A stretch of DNA of 64,000 bases, taken from NCBI RefSeq assembly GCF_036507355.1, contig NZ_AP027877.1; one strand, given 5' to 3'. Under the pieces are notes generated by a model, which ran no database searches, was not told the origin of the DNA, and saw nothing but the letters and a program-made list of their open reading frames with translations. Made by a program: the position numbers and the translations under genes. The stretch's first letter is position 1; every line of letters starts with the position of its first letter. The DNA is from Escherichia coli (GTDB lineage: Bacteria > Pseudomonadota > Gammaproteobacteria > Enterobacterales > Enterobacteriaceae). Below, piece by piece: positions 18,370 to 20,905 of the stretch.

Positions 18370-19887
18370 ATGGAAAGAATAATGCAAAACAGAAAATGGA
18401 TTTTGTCCTCGCTGGTAATGACTTTTTTCGGCATCCCCATACTGACGCAATTTTTGGCGGCGGTTGTTGCTATGCTGGGTGTCGGACTTGCCGGTATTAT
18501 TGAAGTTTGTAATATCCTTATCACGCCAACAATTTACCTTCTGCTCAACATTTTTATGCTGGCGCTGGGCGCATTAATGCTATTTTTCTCGGGGCGAGTA
18601 TGGGCAGGCGATAGTGCACCAGAAAAAAGAGAAATAGCCGTCTGGCGGCAATGCTTTTTTCTCTTACCCGCGCTATTAACCCTGGTTGGCTGGATAATCA
18701 CGCTACATCTGGCAGATTATCAATTTCGCCAGATGGGAGCTGGTTGGTTGGCAAACCTTATGCTTCCCTGGTTGGGCGTTTTTTTAGTCTCATTAGTGGG
18801 TGGTGAGTACTGGTGGATGGTCATTATTCCCGTTGGGGCGCATATCAGTTTTTCGCTGGGATACGCCTGGCCGACCAGATATCCTTTATCCGGCACGTCC
18901 GGACTACGTTGCCGTAACTTACTCCTGTTTCTACTTCTCTTACTTGGTATTGTCGCCGGGTATCAGGCCCATTTATATAAGCAGCAAAATCCTGGTGTCG
19001 GTGTACGCGAAAATATTGATATCTGGGCCTGGCGACCCGATAAACTCAATAATCGACTGACGCCGCTGCGTGGCAAACCGCAAATTCAGTTTAGGCAAAA
19101 CTGGCCGCGAATCGATGGCGCCACGGCTGCGTACCCAATTTATGCTTCTGCATTTTATGCATTAAGCGTAATACCAGAGGATTTTCACGTTTGGGATTAT
19201 CTGGAAAACTCTCGTACGCCAGAAGCATATAACAAAATCGTTAAGGGCGATGCTGATATTATTTTCGTGGCGCAACCTTCTGGTGGGCAAAAAAAACGTG
19301 CAAAGGAATCTGGTGTCACTTTGCTGTACACCCCCTTTGCCCGTGAAGCATTCGTTTTCATCGTCAATGCGGATAATCCGGTTAATTCCCTGACTGAACA
19401 ACAGGTGCGTGACATTTTCAGTGGTGCAATTACCAATTGGCGTACTGTTGGCGGTAACGATCAGGAGATCCAGACCTGGCAGCGCCCGGAAGACTCTGGC
19501 AGCCAGACAGTGATGCAATCACAGGTCATGAAAAATGTCCGCATGATCTCGCCGCAGGAAACGGAAGTGGCAAGCGTGATGGAGGGAATGATTAAAGTCG
19601 TTGCCGAATACCGTAATACAAACAACGCAATAGGCTATACCTTCCGCTATTACGCGACGCAAATGAATGCTGATAAAAATATAAAATTGCTAGCGATTAA
19701 CGATATTACACCGACGGCGGAAAACATTCGCAACGGCAAATATGCGTACATCGTCGATGCATTTATGGTAACGAGGGAAAATACGACGTCAGAGACACAA
19801 AAATTGGTGGAATGGTTTTTAACGCCGCAGGGGCAGAGTTTGGTGGAAGATGTGGGATATGTGCCGATGTATCCAACAATGGAATAA
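18370..19887 (+). CDS. Polytopic membrane protein (about 6-7 predicted TM helices, residues ~1-200) fused to a C-terminal PstS-like (type-2 periplasmic binding protein fold) domain; function unknown
   Basis: 505-aa ORF. N-terminus hydrophobic throughout; C-terminal ~280 aa carry PstS-like motifs (QRPEDSGSQT, AIGYTFRYYAT). Alternative start at 18382 has the better SD (ggaaag). -10-like tataat at 18346-18351. Confidence 0.7.
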   Translation: MERIMQNRKWILSSLVMTFFGIPILTQFLAAVVAMLGVGLAGIIEVCNILITPTIYLLLNIFMLALGALMLFFSGRVWAGDSAPEKREIAVWRQCFFLLPALLTLVGWIITLHLADYQFRQMGAGWLANLMLPWLGVFLVSLVGGEYWWMVIIPVGAHISFSLGYAWPTRYPLSGTSGLRCRNLLLFLLLLLGIVAGYQAHLYKQQNPGVGVRENIDIWAWRPDKLNNRLTPLRGKPQIQFRQNWPRIDGATAAYPIYASAFYALSVIPEDFHVWDYLENSRTPEAYNKIVKGDADIIFVAQPSGGQKKRAKESGVTLLYTPFAREAFVFIVNADNPVNSLTEQQVRDIFSGAITNWRTVGGNDQEIQTWQRPEDSGSQTVMQSQVMKNVRMISPQETEVASVMEGMIKVVAEYRNTNNAIGYTFRYYATQMNADKNIKLLAINDITPTAENIRNGKYAYIVDAFMVTRENTTSETQKLVEWFLTPQGQSLVEDVGYVPMYPTME

Positions 19888-20905
19888 CGCTCGAGAGAAA
19901 GGAATCAGCGAGACGAATAAATTCACCGGTGTTTTACTATTAGGCACGGCGTTACTGGCGGGATGTGTCGACCGGGAAGGGTACTATAACAGCGTCAGGG
20001 AAGAAGAGAGCCATGGACTGACGTCTCTGCGGGGGCAACCTGCATTACGTTACAGCGATGATTGGTCAAGATGGCCGAGAGTGTACGGCGCTACAGCCTT
20101 ATACCCGCTGTATGCCTCCGCGTATTATAAATTAGTACCCGAGCCAAAAGATAAGGATCGAACCTCGCTGGCCTGGCAGGCGTATGGTTTGCAGCAAACC
20201 CGAACAGCTGAAGCCTACGATAGTCTGATTAAAGGTTCCGCGACGGTTATTTTTGTTGCACAACCGTCGGAAGGACAGAAAAAACGTGCAGAAGAAGCGG
20301 GTGTTAAACTGAAATATACCGCTTTCGCCCGCGAAGCCTTTGTCTTTATCGTTGATATTAATAACCCGGTAAATTCTCTCTCTGAGCACCAGGTTAAAGA
20401 TATTTTTAGCGGCAAAACTAGCCGCTGGAATAAAGTAGGTGGTAGTGACGAACATATAAAAGTCTGGCAGCGCCCTGAAGATTCTGGAAGCCAAACGATT
20501 ATGAAGGGGTTGGTTATGCAAGACACCCCAATGCTGCCAGCTAAAAAATCCACTGTGATTGATCTTATGGGCGGTTTAATTACTGAAGTTGCCGACTATC
20601 AAAACACGCCATCTTCCATTGGGTACACCTTCCACTATTACGTCACTCGTATGAATGACAATATGCTCAAAATGCGCAAGCAGATTAAACTTTTGGCTAT
20701 AAATGGCGTTGCGCCTACCGAGGAAAATATCCGCAACGGCACTTATCCATACATTGTGGATGCCTATATGGTGACGCGTGAAAATCCCACGCCGGAAACG
20801 CAGAAATTTGTTGACTGGTTTATAAGTCAGCAGGGGCAACAGTTGGTAGAGGATGTGGGGTATGTGCCGCTGTATGAAGCATCCCCCGAATCATCAGGAC
20901 AATAA
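19850..20905 (+). CDS. PstS-like substrate-binding lipoprotein, paralogue of the upstream gene's C-terminal domain; start uncertain
   Basis: 351-aa ORF; lipobox LLAG|C about 35 residues in; strong similarity to the C-terminal domain of the upstream gene (FVAQPSEGQKKRAEEAGV..., QRPEDSGSQT, IGYTFHYY); 5' end overlaps the upstream gene by 38 nt. Confidence 0.7.
   Translation: MWDMCRCIQQWNNAREKGISETNKFTGVLLLGTALLAGCVDREGYYNSVREEESHGLTSLRGQPALRYSDDWSRWPRVYGATALYPLYASAYYKLVPEPKDKDRTSLAWQAYGLQQTRTAEAYDSLIKGSATVIFVAQPSEGQKKRAEEAGVKLKYTAFAREAFVFIVDINNPVNSLSEHQVKDIFSGKTSRWNKVGGSDEHIKVWQRPEDSGSQTIMKGLVMQDTPMLPAKKSTVIDLMGGLITEVADYQNTPSSIGYTFHYYVTRMNDNMLKMRKQIKLLAINGVAPTEENIRNGTYPYIVDAYMVTRENPTPETQKFVDWFISQQGQQLVEDVGYVPLYEASPESSGQ

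Follow-up and report, generated by a model that had tools for sequence, protein, structure and literature searches.

The stretch of DNA analysed here, hereafter the window, comprises 64,000 nucleotides (nt) of an Escherichia coli chromosome (RefSeq assembly GCF_036507355.1, contig NZ_AP027877.1). It carries ryhB and the glg operon, whose last gene is glgP (15806-18253), and, on the opposite strand, glpD (22989-24509). The interval between glgP and glpD contains gene A (18370-19887), an open reading frame (ORF) at 19850-20905, a further ORF at 20905-21381, and an IS3-family insertion sequence (IS). The ORF at 19850-20905, which includes the gene called gene B below, is the subject of this work; a first-pass annotation had described it as a tandem paralogue of the upstream gene, encoding a PstS-like lipoprotein with a long extension before its lipobox and an ambiguous start. 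In the window, gene B is a start-codon-loss allele, in which the canonical ATG of its relatives has been replaced and the frame is otherwise intact.

As called, the ORF lies on the forward strand and encodes 351 amino acids (aa), in a frame that is open from 19823, immediately after an in-frame stop codon (TAA, 19820). Two in-frame ATG codons are candidate starts, at 19850 and at 19859, the latter giving a 348-aa product, and a search for in-frame GTG or TTG codons up to the lipobox found none, the only near-cognate codons being ATC 19871, ATC 19904, ACG 19913, and CTG 19955; the two ATGs and the lack of GTG or TTG agree with the first-pass description. The lipobox L-A-G-C occupies 19955-19966 (+ strand) within the sequence LLAGC, with the codon of the Cys at 19964-19966, Val at position +2, and Asp at position +3. 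Counted from the native start at 19913, its Cys is residue 18; in the products called from 19850 and 19859, it is residue 39 and residue 36, respectively. The classic PROSITE lipobox rule places the Cys at positions 15-35 and a Lys or Arg within the first seven residues. The segment VLLLGTALLAG, followed by the Cys, satisfies the pattern {DERK}(6)-[LIVMFWSTAG](2)-[LIVMFYSTAGCQ]-[AGS]-C of this rule, and the precursor from the native start passes the rule in full (Cys18, K3). In contrast, Cys39 and Cys36 miss the position criterion, which bears out the earlier remark that the lipobox lies unusually far from the first ATG. Of the 23 listed homologues and variants of the lipoprotein type, 22 have the lipobox Cys. 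All of the closest orthologues, including those of other Escherichia species, begin MNKFT...LLAGC and have the Cys at position 18, and in distant lipoprotein-type homologues (Salmonella, E. albertii, and Pseudocitrobacter) it is found at positions 12-36. The residue at +2 in orthologues is V, A, I, G, S, or T, but never D.

The native start codon of gene B, as placed by alignments with relatives and by RefSeq coding sequence (CDS) starts, lies at 19913-19915 (+ strand), where the window reads ACG and the relatives read ATG, a T-to-C change at 19914 (alignments with BL21, 2022CK-00450, WP5-S18, and RIVM_C037794). In all seven relatives examined, the RefSeq CDS of gene B starts at the equivalent of window position 19913, and the codon there is ATG. 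The gene is annotated with 993 nt and 330 aa in BL21(DE3), 2022CK-00450, WP5-S18-ESBL-08, RIVM_C037794, O157:H7 TR01, and ATCC 8739, and a single protein, WP_001032214.1, is common to BL21(DE3), 2022CK-00450, O157:H7 TR01, and ATCC 8739. Located 25 nt past the stop codon of gene A, the native start yields MNKFTGVLLLGTALLAGC, that is, a 17-residue lipoprotein signal peptide with Lys3 and with Cys18 as the lipobox residue. It is preceded at a distance of 9 nt by the Shine-Dalgarno-like sequence AAAGGA (19898-19903, + strand), which forms the best anti-Shine-Dalgarno duplex among the candidates (-5.6 kcal/mol), whereas the ATGs at 19850 and 19859 share a GGTGGA element at 3 and 12 nt, respectively (-4.9 kcal/mol). 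Thus, gene B proper extends over 19913-20905 (+ strand), with 330 codons and a stop, and encodes a PstS-fold lipoprotein that departs from WP_001032214.1 at codon 1 alone. The first-pass annotation was right to call the start ambiguous. It had also considered that an upstream change might alter the N-terminus, which is close to what was found, although the lesion is a point mutation of the start codon itself.

Apart from its start, gene B is very well preserved. Compared with BL21, the body of gene B differs at 2 nt in 993 nt, namely the start-codon change and one synonymous substitution, and this small difference indicates that the lesion is recent. Between divergent alleles of the two main groups, there are 57 synonymous versus 21 nonsynonymous codon differences, with a rough ratio of nonsynonymous to synonymous substitution rates (dN/dS) of ~0.1, and gene B is therefore under purifying selection where it is intact. 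The mutated start is rare. A 91-nt query centred on the codon found the junction in 872 complete E. coli genomes, none of them at 100% identity, the best matches having a single mismatch. In a collection of 15 billion proteins, the canonical 330-aa protein occurs on at least 1000 contigs, and the 348- and 351-aa products on about five each. The Prokaryotic Genome Annotation Pipeline (PGAP) names the 348-aa version in sister assemblies, that is, it picks the ATG at 19859. Moreover, the contig L003 (GCA_044688185), which belongs to the same lineage, has one mismatch in 5516 nt relative to the window, and stops 4 nt short of the IS junction, carries the same ACG. Since the ACG is common to a few draft assemblies, it represents a real, rare, lineage-specific single-nucleotide polymorphism and not a sequencing error.

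The non-native in-frame extension between the first ATG and the native start (19850-19912, + strand; ATGs at 19850 and 19859) overlaps the end of gene A over 19850-19887, and its remainder is the spacer between genes A and B. Both upstream ATGs fall in GAAGATGTGGGATATGTG, the codons for the conserved EDVGYV motif of gene A, read in the +2 frame. The EDVGYVP codons of gene B, read in the same way, give rise to a mirror ORF at 20853-21101 (82 aa, MWGMCRC...; MWGMCRCMKH...), which is spurious and corresponds exactly to the false start, lying 1003 nt downstream of it. In the WP5-S18 and RIVM_C037794 alleles (L004 and L005), the window codon TGG at 19880-19882 is an in-frame TGA that closes the 21-residue extension, a change that in the frame of gene A merely replaces Glu by Lys, and in the WP5-S18 allele (L004) the first ATG is also lost, reading ACG. 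The TGA in divergent alleles, together with the loss of the first ATG, indicates that the extension is open only by chance in the allele group of the window. Consequently, the long pre-lipobox extension does not stand as a feature of the protein, whose native start is at 19913 and whose upstream codons are not conserved as coding sequence, and it is very probably an artefact of the start-codon loss.

Gene A (18370-19887, + strand), which is intact in the window, encodes a polytopic membrane domain of ~200 aa at its N-terminus, joined to a PstS-like domain of the PBP_like_2 family; Pfam PF12849 covers its residues 247-485, and the protein is annotated with 502 aa in relatives (RefSeq). The start of gene A is itself ambiguous, with ATG 18370, ATA 18379, and ATG 18382 as candidates: the start of the 502-aa RefSeq protein corresponds to window position 18379, where the window and BL21 read ATA and other alleles have ATG (MDRMMPNRKW / MMPNRKW). 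The ORF at 19850-20905 aligns with residues 230-501 of gene A with 58% identity and 74% positives over 286 aa (E = 5e-115), and the two genes are adjacent and on the same strand, so that the view of the ORF as a tandem paralogue of the periplasmic-binding protein (PBP) domain of the upstream gene holds in the pairwise alignment. Of the strings said to be shared by both proteins, AREAFVFIV, NPVNSL, WQRPEDSGSQT, and VEDVGYVP were recovered, whereas LLAING was not, because gene A reads LLAIND and only LLAIN is shared. The best DNA repeat between genes A and B spans 192 nt in their last part, with 73% identity and no long identical tracts. A DNA identity this low led us to discard recent gene conversion between the two. 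A neighbour-joining tree of PBP domains (no bootstrap) places the lipoprotein-type sequences, with the exception of a 350-aa protein, P0071, in a single clade nested within the membrane-anchored A-type sequences. The nested position of this clade indicates that the split between A and B is old and not an E. coli-specific duplication, and the tree position, the 73% DNA identity, and the lack of long identical tracts all agree with the old duplication that had been proposed.

The product of gene B matches the Pfam family PBP_like_2 (PF12849) at 9.6e-30, and its best sequence matches in the PDB are PstS-type proteins (E ~1e-16). Its score against TIGR02136, 119.2 bits, is below the curated cut-off of 206.6. 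An AlphaFold2 (AF2) model has a mean predicted local distance difference test score (pLDDT) of 85.3, and the top Foldseek matches of this model in the PDB are all PstS or phosphate-binding proteins, with E values down to 2e-17 and target-normalised TM-scores up to 0.77, the best superpositions being those with 4n13, 9l8j, 4gd5, and 4lat at ~20% identity. The PstS-like character assigned from the sequence is thus upheld by family, sequence, and fold comparisons. Within the family, G59-A60-T61-A62, R187, S191, and S193 of gene B are invariant and G192 is nearly so, and the gene B motif RPEDSGS (R-x3-S-G-[ST]) aligns with the phosphate-binding motif REDGSGT of the solved PstS 4q8r. The phosphate ligands of E. 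coli PstS are Thr10, Ser38, Asp56, Arg135, and Ser139-Gly140-Thr141. It is plausible, judging from the conserved residues of gene B, that the gene B protein binds phosphate or a similar oxyanion.

Several known proteins help to place it. WP_001032214.1, annotated as a 'PstS family phosphate ABC transporter substrate-binding protein', is encoded at the same glgP-glpD site and agrees with gene B in all 329 residues that follow codon 1, but the window gene has ACG instead of ATG as codon 1 and hence no canonical start at the native position. With E. coli PstS and the TIGR02136 family, the gene B protein shares the class II PBP fold; however, the identity is only ~15-20%, the gene B protein is predicted to be lipid-anchored whereas PstS is soluble, and there are no adjacent pstCAB-like genes. 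A PstS fold on an N-terminal lipid anchor is likewise found in Borrelia burgdorferi BB_0215 (4n13, the top Foldseek match) and in Mycobacterium tuberculosis PstS-1 (1pc3), both of them lipoproteins that serve ATP-binding cassette (ABC) importers; gene B differs from them in having no adjacent transporter partner and in its predicted anchoring to the outer membrane of a diderm. No genes for ABC permeases or ATPases adjoin gene B in the E. coli, Salmonella, or Pseudocitrobacter contexts, and none lie by the A-type gene of Rahnella, in a comparison of the immediate neighbourhoods. Literature searches turned up no experimental work on this PstS-fold anchored family.

In strains with an intact start, the gene B product would follow the established lipoprotein pathway. 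The native precursor, MNKFTGVLLLGTALLAG followed by the Cys, would be exported through Sec and receive its lipid from Lgt; signal peptidase II would then cut it before Cys18, and Lnt would acylate it. In E. coli, Asp at position +2 acts as a Lol-avoidance signal; because the residue at this position is Val and not Asp, the Lol machinery would transfer the mature lipoprotein to the inner leaflet of the outer membrane, and anchoring to the outer membrane, which the first-pass annotation had expected on the same grounds, is the default prediction of the rule. A linker of ~40 residues could then hold the phosphate- or oxyanion-binding PstS-type domain in the periplasm. In the window, the T-to-C change at 19914 removes the canonical start of this precursor, and mechanical ORF calling, like PGAP in sister assemblies, slides to the ATG at 19850 or 19859. 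In a systematic study of E. coli, mass spectrometry showed that ACG can initiate translation, with an N-terminal Met on the product, and the codon class to which it belongs was reported to reach 0.1-1% (sfGFP) or 0.01-0.2% (NanoLuc) of the efficiency of AUG (bioRxiv 10.1101/063800). From the efficiency of this class, the native site is expected to yield at least 100-fold less protein. Gene B of the window is probably silenced or a strong hypomorph, with a predicted translation of roughly 1% or less of normal, and the likeliest setting for this loss is the ongoing decay of the glgP-glpD island.

Some observations weigh against a loss of function. The ATGs at 19850 and 19859 lie in an open frame (from 19823) and could yield an N-terminally extended precursor, the n-region of which retains a small net positive charge; long n-regions are sometimes tolerated in signal peptides; PGAP annotates the 348-aa product in sister assemblies; and the body of gene B, which is free of further damage, fits a very recent lesion and continued function equally well. 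These points, to which the unchanged h-region and lipobox can be added, would favour a rescue from the ATG at 19859 (or 19850), by which 18-21 extra residues would be added to the signal peptide, the precursor would be lipidated at the same Cys and cleaved, and an unchanged mature protein would keep the gene functional. This seems unlikely, however, since the upstream ATGs have only the GGTGGA element, at the poor spacings of 3 or 12 nt, and are embedded in the translated part of gene A, the Cys at 36 or 39 falls outside the classic range of 15-35, and the extension, being neither conserved nor open in the alleles closed by TGA, was never selected as a leader; the adjacent gene C is also knocked out in the window strain. 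A little more doubtful still is leaky initiation at the ACG itself, in which the preserved Shine-Dalgarno sequence at 9 nt and termination-reinitiation from the gene A stop, 25 nt upstream, would make the allele a hypomorph and not a null. ACG-initiated protein has been detected in E. coli and the codon class works at ~0.01-1% of AUG (bioRxiv 10.1101/063800), but, with an expected yield at least 100-fold lower, the outcome for a non-abundant accessory protein would probably equal loss.

That the long N-terminal extension is genuine and conserved, for instance as an extended signal peptide, is very improbable. The ORF is indeed open in the window and in BL21-type alleles, and a few distant homologues are annotated with the Cys at 30-36; against this, the close relatives all have ATG at the equivalent of 19913 and are annotated from there, two alleles contain the in-frame TGA, and the upstream ATGs are by-products of conserved codons of gene A. 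An error of sequencing or assembly at 19914, which a single-base difference from hundreds of genomes might evoke, can hardly be credited and was discarded, because identical 348- and 351-aa products appear in several independent assemblies and L003 shares the T-to-C change. The preferred reading is that of a gene deprived of its start codon in an otherwise undamaged frame.

Downstream of gene B, a second lesion affects gene C. Its 5' part (20905-21378, + strand) encodes a membrane protein that, by alignment with the 200-aa gene of BL21, is interrupted after about codon 158 by an IS600-like element of the IS3 family (21379-22642, + strand; 1264 bp), with orfA at 21443-21745, orfB at 21781-22599, and borders taken from the alignment with BL21. 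The name IS600 is presumptive and is based on the OrfA sequence and the length of the element. A 3-bp target duplication, CAG, flanks the IS at 21376-21378 and 22643-22645, and the 3' remnant of gene C (22643-22774, + strand) includes the second CAG copy. Removal of the element and of one CAG restores the gene C ORF of 200 aa, a 'hypothetical protein' in BL21 (L001, 5625-6227). Rfam matches at the gathering threshold were RyhB (1400-1464) and the ES036 (CssrF) small RNA (22862-22904), the latter located in a spacer resembling repetitive extragenic palindromic (REP) sequences, between the gene C remnant and glpD. A scan for promoters and terminators performed no better than on shuffled sequence.

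Gene C is homologous to the N-terminal membrane domain of gene A. Against a profile of 29 A-type N-terminal domains, gene C scores 31-49 bits, compared with at most 1.0 bit among 500 shuffled control sequences, and the alignment runs end to end, with gene C ending just past the last helix, where gene A continues into its PBP domain. Plain BLASTP of the gene A N-terminal domain against gene C is marginal (E = 0.03), the homology being settled only by the profile comparison with its shuffled controls, and neither Pfam nor NCBIfam has a meaningful match to gene C or the gene A membrane domain. The model of this domain is a confident helical bundle with a pLDDT of 90.8 and has no informative match among solved structures; a Kyte-Doolittle scan of gene A gives six or seven transmembrane helices, with a topology inferred only from an Arg-rich loop before the last helix. 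The cassette therefore has the order [membrane domain-PBP] / [lipo-PBP] / [membrane domain], and this arrangement of domains suggests that B and C may act together as a split form of A. More tentatively, the A/B/C island could be an uncharacterised, non-ABC envelope system in which the PstS-like domains would deliver an oxyanion to a membrane module or sense it there, an idea to which we give rather little weight. The PADLOC models of defence systems did not match A, B, C, or two neighbouring genes of Pseudocitrobacter, and the only PHROGs matches were a generic one ('phosphate transporter subunit') to the PBP domains and a marginal one of unknown function to a Pseudocitrobacter neighbour.

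Homologous loci show other arrangements of the same components. In Pseudocitrobacter cyperus, at the same glgP-glpD site (L008, 6001-8659), a B-type lipoprotein gene of 334 aa precedes a gene whose 351-aa product combines an A-type membrane domain with a PBP domain that is shortened and degenerate; third in the row is a gene for a 142-aa, repeat-rich, secreted-looking protein. In Salmonella enterica (L006 and L007, 3234-6993), two B-type PBP_like_2 lipoprotein genes lie among small unknown genes, in an array that adjoins a gene with an Ntox34 toxin domain and a HEAT-repeat gene and resembles a polymorphic-toxin/immunity island. In Rahnella (L009, 6001-7485), an A-type gene of 494 aa stands alone between purB and phoPQ, without B, C, or ABC genes.

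Within E. coli, the island is retained unevenly. Of 5426 complete genomes, 885 keep at least 80% of it and about 870-885 retain gene B, and many genomes retain gene A only. In K-12-type genomes, the match is limited to the first 320 nt of the query (window 18280-18599, the leader and ~230 nt of the 5' end of gene A), a segment annotated as yzgL, which appears to be a 5' remnant of gene A; yzgL thus marks the same glgP-glpD island in K-12, which lacks genes B and C, whereas the window keeps all three. The yzgL remnant and this piecemeal retention indicate that the locus decays repeatedly in E. coli, and the window strain carries two fresh lesions, the loss of the gene B start and the IS in gene C. 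The G+C content of the island (0.44-0.48 outside the IS, window 18000-22999) is lower than that of the glgP and glpD flanks (0.50-0.59), which is consistent with accessory or horizontally acquired DNA.

The gene B allele calls for caution in annotation, since one T-to-C change in a start codon is enough for ORF finders, and for PGAP in sister assemblies, to call a lengthened product whose signal peptide is implausible, a false extension that comparison with close relatives resolves at once. For the biology of E. coli, the start loss is a commonplace strain-specific lesion of an accessory gene that had been annotated before, and it adds a further step to the decay of an accessory island whose loss recurs among E. 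coli lineages. If genes A, B, and C did form an envelope system of the kind outlined above, the window strain would be a natural double mutant of it, through the start loss in B and the insertion C::IS600. The family itself, with its PstS-fold proteins anchored by a lipid or a membrane domain and encoded without adjacent transporter genes, is of more interest than the allele found in the window.

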